Positions 175 through 64,000 of a stretch of DNA of 64,000 nucleotides are shown here, in pieces; position 1 is the stretch's first letter; each line of letters starts with the position of its first letter. A program made the translations under genes and the position numbers. The notes below the pieces were generated by a model. The model worked only from the letters and a program-made list of their open reading frames with translations, was not told the origin of the DNA and did no database searches. The stretch covers positions 24,862 through 88,861 of the forward strand of contig JAFABB010000011.1 in the NCBI GenBank assembly GCA_023426245.1, in the 5' to 3' direction. Source of the DNA: Bacillota bacterium (GTDB taxonomy: Bacteria; Bacillota; UBA4882; UBA8346).

Positions 175-550
175 GGAAGATGTCAGGCGATAGCTTCAAA
201 ATGAAAAATCTTTTTGTTTTTATACTAAAATCCGGCAAACTTATCCAGCCGAAAAAATTTCGTTGATTATAAAGATAACTCAGCTAAGCTGCTCGCCTAT
301 CGACTCACCCCTTCAGGTACTTTGGGGGTCATAGCTATTTGAAGCCGTTCCCCGCTCTCTGACTGCCGGTGTTTATGAATGTCTGAGAGAGAGGAAGTTC
401 GCTATCCTAAGCATTGATTGCTTTATTAAAAGAAAGCTCCACGGAATTGGTTCCAAAACTCAAATATATCAGTCTGGGAAAAATCGATCAACTCCTATGC
501 ATAGGAACCCCCCCATCAAGAATCTCATCCGTATGCAGCGTTTATCATTG

Positions 551-919: not shown

Positions 920-1465
920 AAAAATAAAAATTCCCGCCATAAAAATCGATTCTTGAGAAAAAAGTTTTTCCCTTCGAAAAATGATTTTTTTCTTTCAAAA
1001 GAAATTTATTATTTCCGGAAATGATTTTTTCTTTCGGGAAAAAATCCATTTTCCCGTTCAATCCATCCCTCGGGTCACAGAAAGGATCAATTTTGTCCTT
1101 CGGAGGACCGATCGGATCACAAAAAGGATCATTTCCGCCGCCCGATCGATCAATTTTTCCCAAAAAAAGTCCTTTCGGTCGTTCAGAGAATCGATCCAAC
1201 TCCAAAAAAGATCCTTTTCCCCCTCCGATCGGTCCCTTTCCCTCCAAAAAGAATCATTTCTGTGACAAAAATGATCATTTCTCCCGTTCAAAGAATCCTT
1301 TCCGTCGTAAAAATGATCTTTTCCGTGACGGAAAGGATCGCTTGACTCATTCAAAGGATGCTTTCTGCCCCTAAAAGGATTCTTTCCGCGGTAAAAATGA
1401 TTCTTTCTGTGATTCAAAGGATCGATCCGGTCACAAAAATAATTCTTTCTTTGACCCAAAATCTT
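920..1465. repeat. Degenerate tandem array, about 26 units of about 21 bp with core AAA(G/T)GATC(A/T)TTTC
   Basis: Core centres fall near 1023, 1045, 1064, 1086, 1128, 1170, 1194, 1211, 1228, 1253, 1274, 1295, 1316, 1337, 1357, 1379, 1400, 1422 and 1441. Spacing is 20-22 bp in the most regular part (1253-1422). There are 14 GATC in 1085-1427. Reading frames stay open on both strands only because of the low-complexity repeat. Confidence 0.85.
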
Positions 1466-1618
1466 CACAAGGCCCGCTCTTGCCTTTATAAAGACCTTAC
1501 CCCATCCCCCTTTAACTCTAAACATTACCCATATCTTGGCGGATAAAAAATTGATAATATTCAATAAATATAAGGCATTTATGAATCCAGAATAGGTCTT
1601 TGCCTAATGAAATGAAGG

Positions 1619-2613: not shown

Positions 2614-2726
2614 GACTCCTTTACAGGCACAAAGGGTTTTAACAACAATGTTTTTCGTCTTTTCTCGGCGTCTGCATCACTTATAGAGCCGACGCCTTGG
2701 CGGGAGATTTGATTTTTTAGACTTCG

Positions 2727-2832
2727 AAGTATTTTCTAAGTAGTCATCCACCCTGGCTTTGCCCGGGCAACGAAAAATCCGTCAGGGTGGCTGTTCGACT
2801 TAGAATCTGAGTTAAAAGTATTTTCTAAGTAG
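2727..2832. promoter_or_regulatory. Two identical 17-mers AAGTATTTTCTAAGTAG (2727-2743, 2816-2832) in a divergent promoter region
   Basis: Perfect direct repeat with an 89-bp start-to-start distance. It flanks the hairpin ccaccctg...cagggtgg and sits between the divergent genes starting at 2613(-) and 2958(+). Confidence 0.45.
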
Positions 2833-3893: not shown

Positions 3894-3965
3894 AAACCAA
3901 ACCGCAATACCGTCCAGAACCAATGGACCATCACCCATGAAAAACTTCGGTAGCATAATGGACCA

Positions 3966-4499
3966 TCACTCATGAAAAGCTTCTATAGCATTTTGAATCC
4001 ATTTTAGTTCAGCTTGGTAATGAAGTAAATGATGGGTAAAAATAAGTTTGGCTTTTTTTTGAAATTCAACCGCCATTTGCGGCAGCAATTCGGTTTGGTG
4101 ATCCTCGATATGTTGAATAATCCGCTCGATTTTTTCTTTTTGCCTCGTCAACGATGCTATTACAAGTTCCGCCTTTAAGAACTCATCAAAATATAATACC
4201 GCATCCTGCTCAAACACAAATTCACAAGTATGGTTCAACAATATCGTGAGCAGTCTTTCAAATTCTTTCCTTCCTGTCTCGGTTATTTCATATACTGCGC
4301 GTTCGGGTTTATTGCCCTCCCTTTCTTCGGAAACATTGACTAAACCCGTCTGCTGCATTTTTTCTAAATGATAGTAGATCGTAGGAAGCTTAATCCGGGT
4401 GAAATCCGCGGCATTTTCCGAGAGCAACAGTTTCAAGCGATAACCGTGTTGCGGGCCATAACGGATTAAAAATCCCAAAATATAGGTTTGAACGATCAT
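3966..4499 (-). CDS. PadR-family transcriptional regulator
   Basis: The N-terminus ILGFLIRYGPQHGYRL...YYHLEKM...G...Y.IT..G is the classic PadR winged helix. 177 aa. Confidence 0.85.
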   Translation of the reverse strand: MIVQTYILGFLIRYGPQHGYRLKLLLSENAADFTRIKLPTIYYHLEKMQQTGLVNVSEEREGNKPERAVYEITETGRKEFERLLTILLNHTCEFVFEQDAVLYFDEFLKAELVIASLTRQKEKIERIIQHIEDHQTELLPQMAVEFQKKAKLIFTHHLLHYQAELKWIQNAIEAFHE

Positions 4500-4660: not shown

Positions 4661-5356
4661 ATGCGAACTCATAAATGGGAGGAAAAAACAATGGTTAAGC
4701 CGCGTGTAAAAGAAACGGATAACGGAATTCAAAACCCCTTCGACATTACGGTTTTTGACAAAATGCGGCGAAAAATGAGGGACCATAACCATCTGGATAC
4801 GGTTCGACTCATTAATTCGGGCATCAATAACGGCCTCGCGCTGGAAATTGGCCCCGGCCCCGGTTATCTTGGTTTGGAATGGTTACGTAGAACAACAGGC
4901 ACGACTTTAAAGGCTGTTGAGATTAGCCAAGGTATGATTCTACTGGCTGAAAAAAATGCAGATGAATACCAACTTCGTAACAGACTTACTTACATTCTGG
5001 GCGACGCCCAAAATTTGCCCTTTGAAAATAAAAGTTTTGATGCCGTTTTCAGTAGCGGTTCACTTCATGAATGGGCTGAGCCAAAGCAAATATTCAATGA
5101 AATATACCGTGTTTTGAAGCCGGGCGGCAGGTATTATATCAGTGATTTACGTCGGGATCTGAATCCGATAATGAAAGCTATCATCATCAAAAGTACCGAG
5201 CCAAAGGAAATCGTTCCTGGTTTTATTACATCTCTCAATGCGGCTTATACAAAAAAGGAACTAAAAGAATTATTGTTATCTTCTAAGCTAAAGGATGCAG
5301 ATGTCAAAAAAAATATAGTGACTCTTGAAGTAATCGGAATAAAAAAATCCGGATGA
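4661..5356 (+). CDS. Class I SAM-dependent methyltransferase
   Basis: Motif I LEIGPGPGYLG, plus the FDAVFSSGSLHEW and LKPGGRYYISD motifs. An alternative start is the ATG at 4691 (MVKPR). Confidence 0.85.
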   Translation: MRTHKWEEKTMVKPRVKETDNGIQNPFDITVFDKMRRKMRDHNHLDTVRLINSGINNGLALEIGPGPGYLGLEWLRRTTGTTLKAVEISQGMILLAEKNADEYQLRNRLTYILGDAQNLPFENKSFDAVFSSGSLHEWAEPKQIFNEIYRVLKPGGRYYISDLRRDLNPIMKAIIIKSTEPKEIVPGFITSLNAAYTKKELKELLLSSKLKDADVKKNIVTLEVIGIKKSG

Positions 5357-22837: not shown

Positions 22838-25186
22838 TCAGGCAGATAACCGGTGCTGGTCATTTCCGTCCAATACGCCCTTTTTCCCTTTACCAAGCCA
22901 CCAGAAAAATGCAACCATAAGGACTAGTAAAGCTAATGAAACTGCAATCCAAACCATTTGATGTCCCAATGTAATTTGATAAAACAGTGTTGAAGTTACC
23001 CAGGCCACTACAGTCAAATATCCCATAGCAAGCCAGCCATAACCTTTGCCGATTTCCCGTATGACCGCCCCCAAAGCGGCTACACAAGGCATGTAAAGCA
23101 GGATAAACAGCAGATACGCATACGCCTGAAGCGGTCCTTTGGTAAAATAATGTTGCATCATACTATAAACCCGCTGATCGGCGCCAACTTCCTCGGCCAC
23201 TGCTTTCTCGTCCCCACTGACTACGCCCAGGCCCAAGGGATCCCGCAAACTATCCCAGATTCCGCTTAAAGCGTCAGGTATCGACGCAAAGGCCTCCTTA
23301 ACCCCGCCCCACAAGTCAAAACCCTGATCCTCTTCAGCGGCATCCCCTTCTGGCGCGGTTGCCGAATCAATCTGGCCATACAGAGAATTAAGAGTTCCTA
23401 CCACTGCCTCTTTAGCAAAAAGTCCGGTAAAAAGCCCCACCGTTGCCGGCCAATTCTCCCGCTCCACCCCCATCGGCTCAAAGACCGGTGTAATCGCCCT
23501 TCCGATTTGGGCTAACACCGAATCAGGAGAGTCTTCATTGCCAAAAGTTCCATTGGTTCCGAATGAATTCAAAAATGCCAATATGGTAACCACAATAATA
23601 ATGACTTTGGTACGGAACATAAATACTTTCAAACGGCTCCAAGTATAAGAGATAATATTCTTAAAGCGCGGTGCATGATAAGGCGGCAGTTCCATCACAA
23701 AATGGGAGCGTTCCCCTTTAAAAAGCGTATTTTTGAGCAACAAGCCTGTCAAAACCGCCATTAAAATTCCGACCAAGTATAGAGAAAACACCATATTAGA
23801 GGCTCCTGCTCCGAAAAACGCGGCCCCAAATAAAGCATAAACCGGCAAGCGGGCTCCGCAAGACATAAAGGGAATCATAAATACGGTCAAATAACGGTCC
23901 CTTTTGTTTTCTAACGTCCGTGTGCCCATAATAGCCGGTACACCACAACCCAATCCAACTAACATCGGAACAAAAGCCTTACCCGGCAGCCCAATCCACC
24001 GCAAAAACCTGTCCATTACAAAAGCGGCTCTGGCCATATACCCTGAATCTTCTAAAATGGATAAAGCCAAGAACATCATGAAAATAACCGGGATAAAAGT
24101 TGCCAATGTCTGAACACCGGCGCCGACACCTCCGGCCAGGATCGTAATAAGCCATTCCGGTGTGTGGATCACGGATAACAATTTGCCAAAACCATCCACA
24201 AATACCGTTCCAAATAAAATATCAAAAAAGTCGATAAAGGAACCCCCGACATTCATCGTAACCCAGAACATTAAATATAACACGGCCAAGAAAATAGGAA
24301 TTCCCAGCAATCTATGCATCACAATTTTATCGATTTTATCACTGGCAGTCTCCCGGAATATGCCGCGTTGTACTATATTTTCCGTAAAGCTGCGGATCAT
24401 CTTGTAGCGGCAATCAGCCATAATCACATCGGTATTCTCGCCCAACTCGGCTTCAAGTTTGCTGAGAGTCGTTCGGATCTCCGTTTCCGAGATGGCGCCG
24501 GATGAAATCACCTTTTCAGTAACCCAAGGATCTTGTTCTAATAATTTCACAGCAGCCCACCGCTGATTGGTGCCTAATGTTTTTTCGGATCCTTGCAATT
24601 GGGGACTCCAGGCGGTAATAACCTTTTCCATTTCCAACGGATATTGAGGAAGTTTCTGAGAAACAACTCCTTCCCGCCAAGCTTTTCCGATAGCATCCTT
24701 CACCTTATGAAGCTCTTTTTTGAGAGTGGCGCTTGAACCTACAACCGGACAACCTAGTTTTGTCGCCAGTTGCGGTAAATCGATTTGGATTCCTTTCTCT
24801 TCGGCCAGGTCCATCATATTAACGACCGCCAGGACCGGCACGCCCATTTCTAAAAGCTGGGTAGTTAGATACAAATTCCGCTCCAGATTGGTAGCATCCA
24901 AAATATTGATTACCAGCCCAGGTTCACCGCTTAATATGTAATCCCGGGCCACCCGTTCATCTTCGGAATGCGCTGTCAAAGAATAAATACCGGGCAAATC
25001 CACCAAGGTAATTTTTTGCCCTGCAACTGAAATGAGGCCTTCTTTTTTCTCCACCGTGACTCCCGGCCAGTTTCCAACCCGTTGGTTGCTTCCGGTAAGG
25101 CCGTTAAAAAGGGTTGTTTTCCCACAGTTAGGATTTCCCACTACGGCAATTGTGCGGCTGCCCGTGCGTACGCTCGCTTCTTTCAT
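22838..25186 (-). CDS. feoB: Ferrous iron transporter FeoB
   Basis: N-terminal G domain GNPNCGKTTLFN, DLPG and NMMD, followed by a polytopic gate-motif membrane domain. 782 aa. TAATG overlap with feoA. Confidence 0.95.
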   Translation of the reverse strand: MKEASVRTGSRTIAVVGNPNCGKTTLFNGLTGSNQRVGNWPGVTVEKKEGLISVAGQKITLVDLPGIYSLTAHSEDERVARDYILSGEPGLVINILDATNLERNLYLTTQLLEMGVPVLAVVNMMDLAEEKGIQIDLPQLATKLGCPVVGSSATLKKELHKVKDAIGKAWREGVVSQKLPQYPLEMEKVITAWSPQLQGSEKTLGTNQRWAAVKLLEQDPWVTEKVISSGAISETEIRTTLSKLEAELGENTDVIMADCRYKMIRSFTENIVQRGIFRETASDKIDKIVMHRLLGIPIFLAVLYLMFWVTMNVGGSFIDFFDILFGTVFVDGFGKLLSVIHTPEWLITILAGGVGAGVQTLATFIPVIFMMFLALSILEDSGYMARAAFVMDRFLRWIGLPGKAFVPMLVGLGCGVPAIMGTRTLENKRDRYLTVFMIPFMSCGARLPVYALFGAAFFGAGASNMVFSLYLVGILMAVLTGLLLKNTLFKGERSHFVMELPPYHAPRFKNIISYTWSRLKVFMFRTKVIIIVVTILAFLNSFGTNGTFGNEDSPDSVLAQIGRAITPVFEPMGVERENWPATVGLFTGLFAKEAVVGTLNSLYGQIDSATAPEGDAAEEDQGFDLWGGVKEAFASIPDALSGIWDSLRDPLGLGVVSGDEKAVAEEVGADQRVYSMMQHYFTKGPLQAYAYLLFILLYMPCVAALGAVIREIGKGYGWLAMGYLTVVAWVTSTLFYQITLGHQMVWIAVSLALLVLMVAFFWWLGKGKKGVLDGNDQHRLSA

Positions 25187-61212: not shown

Positions 61213-62916
61213 TTGATAATGGATATCTTACAAATGCTCTTGATTTTAGCGGTTACTCTCATCCTGGCGTGGCCCCTGGGCCGTTATATCGCCAAGGTTT
61301 TTGGCGGGGAACGGACCTGGATGGATCCCTTGGGGCGTCCGGTGGAGCGCTTGCTCTACCGGATGGCCGGCATTGATCCCCAGCAGGAAATGGATTGGAA
61401 GCACTATGCTTTGGCATTGTTATCCTTCAACATACTCGGCATCCTATTCCTTTTCATACTCCAGCGGATTCAAGGGGTCCTGCCTTTTAATCCCCAACAC
61501 TTCGCCTCAGTTCCCGGAGTTTTGGCATTGAATACGGCGGTTAGTTTTGTAACCAACACCAACTGGCAGGCCTATTCCGGCGAAAGTACCCTTAGTTACT
61601 TGACCCAGGCTCTTGGCCTGACTGTGCAAAATTTTGTTTCGGCGGCCACCGGAATGGCGGTCGCCATCTCCCTCATCCGGGGGATTACCCGGAAGACCTG
61701 CCGTTTTATCGGCAATTTTTGGGTGGATCTGACCCGTTCCGTGGTCTGGATTTTGCTTCCCTTATCCCTGATACTGGCCCTTATCCTGACATCCCAAGGG
61801 GTGATTCAAAACTTCCACCATGATACGGCTGTTCAAACACTGGAAGAAAAAGTCCAGACCCTTCCGATGGGTCCGGTGGCTTCCCAGGAAGCCATTAAAG
61901 AATTGGGAACCAACGGCGGCGGATTTTTCAACGCCAATTCGGCCCATCCCTTTGAAAATCCGTCCCCTTTCACCAACCTTTTGGAAATCATGGCCTTGCT
62001 CTTGATTCCCATCGCCTTGACCTTCACTTTCGGCCATATGGCCGGTGAGGGCAGGCAAGGCCATGTCATCCTGGGAGCAATGCTGCTGTTATTTTTGGTG
62101 AGTTTAGGAATCGCTTACTGGAGTGAAGCGGAGGGCAATCCTCAAATTGCCGTCCTTGGCCTTAAAGGGCCCACCGCGATGGAGGGGAAAGAAGTCCGCT
62201 TTGGTATCGCCGGTTCAGTACTGTTTGCCGCGGCCACCTCCGCCACCTCGTGCGGAGCAGTCAATACCATGCATGACAGTCTCACCCCCCTGGGCGGATT
62301 CGTCCCCCTGTTTCAAATCATGCTGGGCGAGGTAGTCTTCGGCGGTGTGGGCGCCGGTCTTTATTCCATCCTGATCTTTGTTATTTTGGCGGTCTTTATC
62401 GTCGGATTGATGGTGGGCCGGACTCCCGAATACCTTGGTAAAAAAATCGAAAGCGCCGAAATTAAAATGGCCGTGCTGGGGATGGTAATCCCCTCCGCAT
62501 TAATCCTGGTCGGCAGTGCCATCGCAGCGGTAACCCGCGCCGGTTTGGGGTCGGTTACCAACCCGGGGCCTCACGGCTTAAGCCAGATTTTGTATGCCTT
62601 TTCTTCGGCTGCGGGCAATAACGGCAGCGCTTTCGCGGGGTTAAACGCCAACACATTATTTTACAACCTGATGCTGGCTTTGGCGATGTTCATCGGCCGC
62701 TTTGGAGTCATCCTGCCGGTACTAGCCATTGCCGGTTCCATGGCCGGTAAAAAAATCATCCCGTCCGGCCCGGGAACCTTCCAAACCAAGGGACTCCTTT
62801 TTACCTGTGTTTTGATTGGAACGATCCTGATTGTCGGCGCATTAACCTTTTTTCCGGCTTTAGCCCTGGGCCCCATCATTGAACACTTGGTGATGAATGC
62901 CGGAAAGACTTTTTAA
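61213..62916 (+). CDS. kdpA: Potassium-transporting ATPase subunit A
   Basis: 567 aa, polytopic, with KdpA selectivity-filter-like repeats (NTNWQ.Y.GE, LGTNGGGFFN.NSAHP, ..SCGAVN, ..NNGSAFAG). TTG at 61213 has GGAGGAG 6 nt upstream. An alternative ATG is at 61219. Confidence 0.95.
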   Translation: MIMDILQMLLILAVTLILAWPLGRYIAKVFGGERTWMDPLGRPVERLLYRMAGIDPQQEMDWKHYALALLSFNILGILFLFILQRIQGVLPFNPQHFASVPGVLALNTAVSFVTNTNWQAYSGESTLSYLTQALGLTVQNFVSAATGMAVAISLIRGITRKTCRFIGNFWVDLTRSVVWILLPLSLILALILTSQGVIQNFHHDTAVQTLEEKVQTLPMGPVASQEAIKELGTNGGGFFNANSAHPFENPSPFTNLLEIMALLLIPIALTFTFGHMAGEGRQGHVILGAMLLLFLVSLGIAYWSEAEGNPQIAVLGLKGPTAMEGKEVRFGIAGSVLFAAATSATSCGAVNTMHDSLTPLGGFVPLFQIMLGEVVFGGVGAGLYSILIFVILAVFIVGLMVGRTPEYLGKKIESAEIKMAVLGMVIPSALILVGSAIAAVTRAGLGSVTNPGPHGLSQILYAFSSAAGNNGSAFAGLNANTLFYNLMLALAMFIGRFGVILPVLAIAGSMAGKKIIPSGPGTFQTKGLLFTCVLIGTILIVGALTFFPALALGPIIEHLVMNAGKTF

Positions 62917-62931
62917 ATAGGGGGAATTTAA

Positions 62932-64000
62932 ATGAACCATGAAAAACAAGCTCCCAAAAACCTGAACCAGGCCATGGTCTGGCAGGCCGTCAAAGAATCC
63001 TTTGTCAAATTGAATCCCAAAACCCTTTGGAGAAATCCGGTCATGTTCGTGGTGGAAGTTTTAGCGGCGATGCTGTCCTTGTCAATCATCGCTAACCTCT
63101 GGACCCAGCGGCATACCGGACTTGGTTTCAACATTCAAGTCACTCTTTGGCTTTGGGTGACCGTGCTGTTCTCCAATTTCGCCGAAGCCCTGGCCGAAGG
63201 TCGCGGAAAAGCTCAGGCCGCGGCATTACGCCGGACCCGCAGTGAAACGACGGCTAAAAAACTCGCCGGGAATAAAACCCTCCCCACTCCGGCCGCAGAG
63301 TTGCGCAAGGGAGACCTGGTTTTGGTAGAACCGGGGGATATCATTCCCGGCGATGGTGAGGTGATTGAGGGTATCGCCTCTGTTGATGAAAGCGCGATTA
63401 CCGGCGAGTCGGCTCCGGTTATCCGCGAAGCCGGCGGCGATCGCAGCTCGGTTACGGGCGGCACCCGGGTGTTATCAGACTGGATCAGGGTGCGGATCTC
63501 CGCCGATCCCGGCGAAACCTTCCTGGACCGGATGATTCATCTTGTCGAGGGCGCCAAACGTCAAAAAACTCCCAATGAAATCGCTCTGACCATTTTGTTG
63601 CTGGCCCTGACCATCATCTTTTTACTGGCTGTGGTGACTTTGGAACCTTTGGCCATTTATTCGGGGGCTTCACCGTCCGTTACCGCCCTGGCTGCTTTGT
63701 TGGTGTGCCTGATCCCCACCACTATCGGCGGACTCCTTTCCGCTATCGGCATCGCCGGTATGGACCGGTTGTTGAAAAGGAACGTGATCGCCCTTTCCGG
63801 ACGGGCAGCGGAAGCGGCGGGTGATGTCGATGTGTTGCTGCTCGATAAGACGGGAACCATTACCCTGGGGAACCGGATGGCGACCGAATTCATTCCCGCT
63901 CCGGGGATCAGCGGGGAGGAGCTGGCCGATGCCGCCCAAATCGCTTCTTTATCGGATGAGACCCCGGAAGGCCGGAGTATCGTCATCCTTGCAAAAGAAA
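62932..64000 (+). CDS. kdpB: Potassium-transporting ATPase subunit B (5-prime partial, continues beyond the window)
   Basis: My translation starts [29 protein letters not shown]. It contains [21 protein letters not shown] and the phosphorylation site LDKTGTIT near 63843-63866. No stop codon before 64000. Confidence 0.9.

Follow-up and report, generated by a model that had tools for sequence, protein, structure and literature searches.

Positions 920 to 1465 of a 64,000-nucleotide stretch of Bacillota DNA (contig JAFABB010000011.1 of GenBank assembly GCA_023426245.1; this whole stretch is referred to as the window) contain a tandem array of degenerate 21-bp units. This 21-bp array is real, old, and non-coding, and it is one copy of a lineage-specific tandem-repeat family with a period of 21 or 42 bp that is dispersed among intergenic sites in uncultured, spore-forming Bacillota. 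The family is new and consists of phase-locked arrays of dyad repeats. Its mode of evolution is unusual in that substitutions accumulate at a nearly neutral rate, yet exact spacing is kept across loci and species. Such conservation of spacing without sequence points clearly to selection that acts on helical phase and not on the letters, and we tentatively interpret the array, with slightly less than even confidence, as a phased and probably curved protein-binding platform that acts at the DNA level and belongs to a dispersed family of the MIRU or BOX type. A preliminary description of the locus had been prepared from the letters of the DNA alone; the observation that it reported is confirmed and its structural reading was right, and the functional candidates that it named are not supported.

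The array consists of a core (1039 to 1465, with no strand assigned) of 20 units of 21 bp, which are well phased over positions 1039 to 1458, and of a looser, A/T-rich left part (920 to 1038, also without a strand) that contains approximately six units of 17 to 22 bp with a period of 19 to 21. The two parts together account for the approximately 26 units counted previously. The core was characterized by its periodicity, a unit table, its dyads, a six-way alignment, and its curvature. Autocorrelation over positions 1039 to 1465 yielded identities of 0.495, 0.553, and 0.519 at lags of 21, 42, and 63, respectively. Given that the shuffle expectation for lag 21 is 0.261 ± 0.022, the observed value corresponds to a z score of 10.7, and the highest lag-21 identity of all 427-nucleotide tiles in the 64 kb was that of tiles over the array. 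Tandem Repeats Finder, which had been proposed together with autocorrelation as a check of the period, returned only fragments (1004 to 1041 and 1246 to 1326), because the units are merely 50 to 60% alike. A repeat search recovered 12 and 8 copies at spacings that were multiples of 21, and each unit start between positions 1248 and 1437 was exactly 21 bp from the next. The phasing of sites at two helical turns described previously was thus upheld, with the qualification that the 20- and 22-bp spacings listed among them were an artifact of variant centers, the real value in this interval being 21 bp. Two phase slips, of +1 at approximately position 1165 and of –2 at approximately position 1247, are kept in all copies.

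The palindromic nature of the unit core was also borne out, with a mean of 4.45 of 6 positions being complementary at the best center compared with 3.35 ± 0.17 for shuffled units. Two types of unit were distinguished. A-type units conform to AAA(G/T)(G/A)ATC(N)TTTC, which corresponds to an A4N5T4 box. B-type units are G+C-rich, contain CGATCG or CCGATCGG dyads, and alternate with A-type units in positions 1102 to 1247, giving rise to a 42-bp super-period. The super-period had been noted in the preliminary description and is reflected in the identities for positions 1080 to 1250, where that at lag 42 (0.496) is higher than that at lag 21 (0.407). A4N5T4 boxes occur at a density of approximately 55 per kb in the array compared with approximately 2.8 per kb elsewhere, an enrichment of approximately 20-fold, and approximately 17 distinct sites with no more than one mismatch are present between positions 939 and 1450 at multiples of 21 bp. 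The count of 14 GATC sites in positions 1085 to 1427 was reproduced; the density of 3.8 per kb for the whole window predicts approximately 1.3. Elsewhere in the window, the core motif is found only at the chance rate.

The same array is present in two relatives, L001 (esterase 87% identical to that encoded next to the array in the window) and L006 (77%), in which it lies 30 to 45 nucleotides past the stop codon of the esterase gene, and the arrays of the window, L001, and L006 could be aligned unit by unit. Colinear copies follow cysS and CTP_transf_3 genes in L256 and L260 to L263 as well as ilvN in L258. Another stands beside a GH1 gene in L257, in which the upstream region of the esterase gene is present but the esterase gene itself is not. 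The array contexts therefore comprise at least four different chromosomal settings (esterase, CTP_transf_3, ilvN, and GH1), and the unit-by-unit identity of the colinear copies in these settings is 70 to 89%. Metagenome-assembled genomes with copies include GCA_023392595.1, GCA_023429995.1, GCA_023439065.1, and GCA_023410375.1. Units are orthologous one by one across six aligned copies, whose pairwise identities range from 0.60 to 0.89, and the five close copies differ in length by nothing more than one exact 21-nucleotide unit. This extra unit (1361 to 1381, no strand) is found only in the copy of the window, its exact position being ambiguous within the repeat. The earlier argument that the degeneracy of the units speaks against a recent slippage expansion is supported by these alignments. 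The preliminary description had further envisaged a neutral minisatellite that is absent or hypervariable in relatives and lacks copies elsewhere; copies do exist elsewhere, and they are not hypervariable.

Given that gene callers place open reading frames (ORFs) over the arrays, pseudo-ORFs in two frames were used as search queries. The family proved to be rare, with only 7 pseudo-ORF relatives among 1.84 billion representative proteins. The second frame retrieved six more called products on other contigs, of which P0061, when looked up, corresponded to the CTP_transf_3 locus again (L260 to L263). Three array-bearing contigs, including one identical to the window, were found in a single metagenome sample (ERZ27268891). 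Relatives encode dipicolinate synthase as well as Spo0E-like and SleB-like genes, and the host is therefore a spore-forming Bacillota lineage that is represented only by metagenomes. A younger and homogeneous array is present between TetR and ROK genes in L259 (NCBI GCA_023429995.1, positions 5018 to 5302), where a 42-nucleotide unit is repeated 6.8 times at 93%. Its cores, GGAAATCATTTCC and AAATCCTTTC, are related to those of the window family, which shows that the family is still able to expand.

The array was absent from the esterase locus of relatives whose esterases are 73% and 65% identical to that of the window. No array match was detected in plasmid and phage collections, nor was any real match detected in viral contigs, in which one 19-nucleotide word of the array within a phage coding region was attributable to chance. 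A pattern search with AAADRAT(N14) × 4 over genome and viral contigs was too permissive, with unrelated A/T-rich or tandem DNA among the matches listed, and none of the 240 pattern-match loci that were fetched was related to the array by local BLAST. Literature searches turned up nothing specific. A metagenome scan with the esterase alignment yielded three loci, among which L250 (esterase 69%) carries a different, young 21-nucleotide array at the same place downstream of the esterase gene (764 to 1015). The unit of this array is GCGCAATCGTTGCGTATGCGT, with the palindrome ACGCAATCGTTGCGT, and it shows a higher-order period of 105 nucleotides at 93%; gene callers annotated it as a 125-amino acid protein with THTQRLR heptads. 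Either the turnover of arrays at a single site or a separate origin could account for the L250 array. A further small dispersed repeat, composed of AATCCTGT(T/C)AATC motifs followed by TTAGGCCCGCAGTA, was observed on the far side of the arrays in L001 (11290 to 11420), L258 (6790 to 6846), and L250 (1120 to 1170), and two contigs end just past it.

In the window and L256, the array forms the right part of a larger unit of approximately 1.25 kb (window positions –119 to 1465, minus 518 to 820), hereafter referred to as the element. Between these two copies, the parts of the element outside of the array differ by 118 substitutions and 13 insertion-deletion (indel) events, whereas the array core differs by 36 substitutions and the single 21-nucleotide unit is its sole length change. 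The left part of the array (920 to 1038) is less constrained, with 8 substitutions and 3 indel events. A similar pattern was apparent for the sister species L256 and L260, for which identity is 0.907 at fourfold degenerate sites (n = 600) and 0.935 in the array core, with the latter showing 25 substitutions and 0 gaps. Three ordinary intergenic spacers of the same pair have accumulated 50 substitutions and 20 gap events. On the basis of the gap ratio of these spacers, approximately 10 indels would be expected in the core, compared with the 0 that were observed.

Changes within the units are unevenly distributed, amounting to 0.23 to 0.27 per column for the A tract and 0.27 to 0.39 for the T/ATC columns, compared with 0.70 to 0.75 for two spacer columns, so that the A and T tracts vary two to three times less than do the two most variable spacer columns. 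In L006, a central TAATT replaces GGATC or TGATC in approximately 10 units, with the A and T tracts and the dyad being maintained. Given that L006 is the most A+T-rich lineage, mutation bias acting on unconstrained central positions suffices to account for this change. The number of GATC sites is 9 to 18 in four other copies, 6 (together with 13 AATT) in L006, and 1 in L259, with the overall range among arrays being 18 to 0. As judged from these alignments, length and phase are the constrained features. With length, phase, and the A and T tracts being constrained and the center being free, the conserved entity is therefore an A4-N5-T4 box every two helical turns.

Since successive boxes are 21 bp apart, or 42 bp apart where CGATCG-type dyads alternate with them, they would all face the same side of the helix. 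In the reading that we tentatively prefer, each A-type unit would thus serve as an A4-N5-T4 dyad box, selection would hold the spacing and the A/T tracts while the central bases and spacers drift, and the array as a whole would constitute a phased, intrinsically curved platform at the level of DNA. A putative oligomerizing protein, probably a reader of the minor groove, might bind or wrap cooperatively along it. Selection on helical phase together with retention of the A/T tracts suggests a DNA-level role as a curved segment, a platform for cooperative binding on one face, or both. All three wedge models predicted stronger curvature for the array than for any other 210-bp stretch in the 64 kb, with a ratio of end-to-end distance to contour length of 0.37 to 0.58 compared with a mean of 0.92 (standard deviation of 0.05 to 0.06). 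Curvature was also predicted for the arrays of L001, L256, L257, and L258. The next most curved 210-bp stretches of the window, at approximately positions 23651, 26051, and 54101 (0.54 to 0.76), are much weaker than the array.

Several observations weigh against this interpretation. The parameters of the wedge models are approximate. For L006 and the young L259 array, only weak curvature was predicted, which undermines the notion that curvature is the single conserved property. The substitution rate of the core is near neutral (identity of 0.935 versus 0.907 at fourfold sites), so that constraint on sequence is modest. B-type units are not A4N5T4 boxes. No binding protein was identified, and no gene was found to co-occur consistently with the arrays across loci. 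The presence of several copies is established at the level of the ERZ27268891 sample rather than for one genome, with a single copy being present in the 64-kb window. Neither terminal inverted repeats nor a target duplication was found at the element's own ends, and a minus-strand terminator at the end of the element leaves room for a role in RNA. A more specific proposal, which is speculative and in our view unlikely, is that the arrays are chromosomal landing pads for a putative oligomerizing protein, either ComK-like (A4N5T4) or nucleoid-associated, that would form a long filament or wrap DNA at a few intergenic sites of this sporulating lineage, with the array edges also acting as recombination junctions.

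The portion of the element to the left of the array is itself conserved in part. A non-coding block on the minus strand (positions 1 to 190) runs on to approximately 119 nucleotides left of the window, as seen in contig L007 (12420 to 12729), which is identical to the window over positions 1 to 2700 and reaches further left. The block contains a palindrome, CACATTTTTTTGAAAAAAGTGTG, two GTGTCGAT repeats, and one TTATCCACA box, and it also has a long inverted repeat, TGTCGATAAC...GTTATCCACA. Its identity is 84 to 89% between the window and L006 or L260, compared with only 59% at fourfold sites of the esterase gene; the block is thus more conserved than the neighboring coding gene. Arrays are often accompanied by this conserved sequence of 200 to 300 nucleotides, as in the window, L256, L260, and L006. 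It was absent from L001, L257, and L258 as far as these contigs extend. The block has no conserved ORF because of a frameshift in L256, and no Rfam match to it was found. At the end of the element (approximately window positions –90 to –119), a minus-strand hairpin followed by a T-run is kept in L007, L256, L260, and L006, and an adjoining hairpin, located left of the window, shows three compensatory pairs. Assignment of a strand to the hairpin left of the block on the basis of a tetraloop was abandoned, given that loops of 3 or 5 nucleotides form on either strand. The block may be an independent non-coding RNA of approximately 300 to 560 nucleotides.

A middle segment (191 to 517, minus strand) is common to the window and L256 (approximately 81%) and is absent from L006 and L260. 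It includes a conserved promoter-like site on the minus strand (491 to 463) that consists of TTGATC, 17 nucleotides, and a TG-extended TATATT. A window-specific insertion (518 to 820, no strand) that is absent from L256 separates this segment from a non-repeat segment of the element (821 to 919, no strand) that is common to L256 and, from position 787, to L260. The latter segment opens with what was the right half of a C5...G5 hairpin before the insertion split it. Gene order breaks at the left edge of the element both between the sisters L256 and L260 and at the esterase locus. The sisters are 95 to 98% identical through their flanking genes and array, and similarity is lost at the left edge (beyond 7201 in L256 and 7832 in L260). 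The blocks of L256 and L260 are 83% alike, whereas that of L260 is 89% like the block of the window, suggestive of exchange between copies.

The left end of the window is non-coding for >1.86 kb, and the array sits within this stretch. The right neighbor of the array is a gene on the minus strand (1867 to 2610) for a 247-amino acid, esterase/lipase-like alpha/beta hydrolase. In the ancestral layout, the array starts approximately 30 to 45 nucleotides past the stop codon of this gene. In the window, the two are parted by a 353-bp insertion (1518 to 1870, no strand) resembling a miniature inverted-repeat transposable element (MITE), with perfect 19-bp terminal inverted repeats, CTAAACATTACCCATATCT, and a 10-bp target duplication, CCCTTTAACT / CCCTTCAACT. 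This insertion has trimmed a few codons from the esterase gene and provides a new stop codon. Comparison with L001 revealed that a locus-specific spacer (1466 to 1517, minus strand) was once the 3' flank of the esterase gene together with its last codons, and that the insertion has severed this spacer from the gene. The MITE-like sequence is palindromic, with two nested hairpins in each half; the corresponding site is empty in L001, and assembly L008 breaks inside the sequence. The window-specific insertion at 518 to 820 contains a half copy of the same repeat at approximately positions 550 to 722 on the plus strand.

Upstream of the esterase gene, a region (window positions 2624 to 2745) that contains a hairpin together with the repeat GACTTCGAAGTATTTTCTAAGTAG (found again at 2809 to 2832) recurs beside the array in L257 (5860 to 5965) without the esterase gene in between, and this gene therefore behaves like a cassette that is present or absent. 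To the left of the window, where the preliminary description had proposed a search for a Rep, ParB, or Dam-like gene, L007 instead encodes an AraC-type protein of 792 amino acids as well as a transporter of the Opp type. The remainder of the window is given over to chromosomal genes of an ordinary kind, among them those for ThrRS, rubrerythrin, ABC transporters, FeoB, glycoside hydrolases, and KdpA. Two copies (88%) of a 35-bp direct repeat at positions 3922 to 3991 span the gap after the 3' end of a DUF3298/Inhibitor_I42 gene and extend into the 3' end of a PadR gene. The G+C content over the kdpA gene (62001 to 64000) is 55%, compared with 44% for the window.

Among the alternatives to a phased DNA platform, a selfish or neutral interspersed minisatellite carries some weight, although it is improbable on balance. 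The array would then be the tandem interior of a non-autonomous mobile or recombining element without a host function, like the MIRUs of mycobacteria or the BOX elements of pneumococci, and would persist because its degenerate units have stopped slipping. The varied chromosomal contexts, the gene-order breaks at the element's edge, the young homogeneous arrays of L259 and L250, the near-neutral rate of substitution, the many MITE-like insertions in the surroundings, and the lack of an array next to the esterase gene in more distant relatives are all compatible with such an origin. Neutral DNA, however, would be expected to acquire approximately 0.1 to 0.4 indels per substitution, as estimated from the non-array parts of the element and from spacers, and the core has acquired none except for one exact unit. 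Also against it, the A and T tracts are less variable than the spacers, and neither a transposase nor terminal inverted repeats nor a target duplication was found for the element. We consider it quite improbable that the array functions as RNA, in a minus-strand transcript (a long 3' untranslated region of the upstream gene or part of a non-coding RNA of approximately 1.2 kb that ends at the conserved terminator) in which neighboring palindromic units would pair to form a row of hairpins that acts as a stabilizer or a protein sponge. Where it follows an esterase, CTP_transf_3, or ilvN gene, the array keeps the same orientation and lies just past the stop codon, and both the conserved terminator hairpin and the compensatory pairs of the adjacent hairpin would fit this notion. 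Folding of the array is also much better than that of shuffled sequences (z = –7.7 for the minus strand and –5.8 for the plus strand), but foldability follows automatically, on both strands, from palindromic units. Moreover, with RNAalifold the array received no support on balance from covariation (covariation term of +1.52), and double changes stem from the symmetric core change in L006, which is compatible with any dyad model. A terminator is present between ilvN and the array in L258, and that of L259 is oriented away from any gene upstream of it. The window yielded no Rfam 15 match at the gathering score, with only chance-level hits over the element at E ≤ 10, and an exact period of two helical turns has no obvious rationale for RNA. 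A type III toxin-antitoxin system (ToxI-like), in which nearly identical repeats precede a terminator and a toxN-like gene, was rejected on the grounds that the units are only 50 to 60% alike and that the element contains no ORF after them. Assignments to group II introns, retrons, and CRISPR were likewise rejected, given that there were no Rfam hits and no reverse transcriptase or Cas genes and that a 21-nucleotide period leaves no spacers.

The functions favored in the preliminary description fared less well. It is very improbable that the array serves a plasmid, a phage, or an integrated element as an iteron origin, an incompatibility array, or a partition centromere. The architecture is iteron-like and also similar to that of F sopC, and the conserved block contains a perfect TTATCCACA box. 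This box lies 750 bp from the array, whose left part is A/T-rich; however, the units are dyads, and several copies lack the block. Against such a role, Rep, ParA/ParB, relaxase, and integrase genes are absent, by Pfam annotation, from the 64 kb and from the other loci, and no parM/R or tubZ/R genes were found at any locus. The context is syntenic chromosome with a GC skew that is negative throughout the window and shows no switch, and the array recurs at several unrelated chromosomal loci while giving no match in plasmid and phage collections or viral contigs. Equally hard to sustain is the presence of a real or recently decayed gene for a heptad-repeat protein, an idea that arises because 21 nucleotides equal seven codons and the minus strand reads as K-D/N-x-F heptads. 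ORFs are called over the arrays (P0020 to P0022, P0056 to P0058, and P0060 to P0066), some of them overlapping the stop codon of the upstream gene; a 125-amino acid heptad ORF occupies the same position in L250; and evolution free of indels is also typical of coding DNA. Changes among the five close copies nevertheless show no codon-position bias, numbering 66, 63, and 77 for the three phases (minimum number per column), whereas the corresponding codon-position identities of the neighboring esterase gene are 0.92, 0.93, and 0.80. Every one of the six frames of every copy contains at least one stop codon, and the heptad reading changes frame where the conserved +1 and –2 slips interrupt the array. 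The ORFs annotated over the arrays are in different frames in different genomes and have no Pfam match, and the small number of pseudo-ORF relatives mentioned above also counts against a gene. The intact repeat protein with codon-position conservation that had been anticipated under this explanation was not found. Less credible still is a methylation-sensing GATC array of the Dam/SeqA type. The abundance of GATC in the window and in four other copies prompted it, but AATT stands in place of GATC in L006, only one GATC remains in L259, conservation falls on the columns of the A and T tracts rather than on those of G and C, and there is no methylase gene nearby (nor a Dam-like gene anywhere in the 64 kb). 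Readings as CodY, CcpA (cre), Noc, parS, Spo0A, or DnaA-box sites were rejected because the spacing or the conserved positions did not fit.

If a binding protein exists, the arrays would provide a natural high-copy bait with which to find it, and they could reveal a chromosome-structuring system in a Bacillota clade represented only by metagenomes. Should the landing-pad proposal be correct, the arrays would represent a new kind of bacterial chromatin or organizing element. If they are selfish minisatellites, they would be a modest addition to the catalog of bacterial interspersed repeats. In either case, such arrays are routinely misannotated as hypothetical proteins, break assemblies, and mark rearrangement junctions.

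We compared the arrays with known systems. Mycobacterial interspersed repetitive units (MIRUs) and pneumococcal BOX elements are intergenic tandem-repeat families that often lie directly past an upstream stop codon in the same orientation and over which ORFs may overlap that stop. BOX elements are assembled from modules, those at the ends being conserved and the middle being a tandem repeat, and contain no transposase, as is the case here, and the same tandem block was found in four different gene contexts. The arrays differ from these families in that their 21-bp units are dyad-symmetric and locked to two helical turns (compared with units of 46 to 101 bp for MIRU and 45 bp for boxB), in that they are old and length-stable and reside in an uncultured Bacillota host, and in that there is no sequence similarity. 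The behavior of a variable-number tandem repeat was not seen, with one unit-sized change among five close copies and none between L256 and L260. Palindromic arrays at gene 3' ends are also a feature of enterobacterial REP/BIME sequences, with REPs being bound by the DNA-structuring proteins gyrase and IHF and acting in mRNA as well. REPs, however, are approximately 35 nucleotides long, alternate in orientation, and occur by the hundreds per genome as singletons or small clusters, whereas the core motif of the array is at chance level outside of it. The sopC site of the F plasmid consists of tandem 43-bp units, each with an inverted repeat. Like other partition centromeres and iterons, it resembles the array in having tandem units of approximately two or four helical turns that carry dyad sites, and the sites of these known systems are bound cooperatively by a dimeric protein. 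The array differs from all of them in its lack of partition or replication genes, its multilocus chromosomal distribution, its far greater degeneracy, and its lack of a plasmid or phage match.

In a type I K-box, two boxes are separated by 8 bp, or 21 bp center to center, and lie on the same helical face; the five central bases and the spacer are free, whereas helical phase is essential. Hamoen and colleagues are reported to have described, in 1998, the K-box of ComK in Bacillus subtilis as A4-N5-T4. No ComK (PF06338) was seen in the 64 kb and the genome fragments examined. A K-box comprises two boxes that are bound by one tetramer upstream of a promoter, whereas the array has approximately 15 to 20 boxes at gene 3' ends, and its B-type units are not AT-boxes. 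The features conserved in the array are nonetheless the same as those of the K-box, with A4N5T4 boxes being placed at integral helical turns. The type I K-box is the closest architecture known to us, the relation being one of resemblance rather than of membership.

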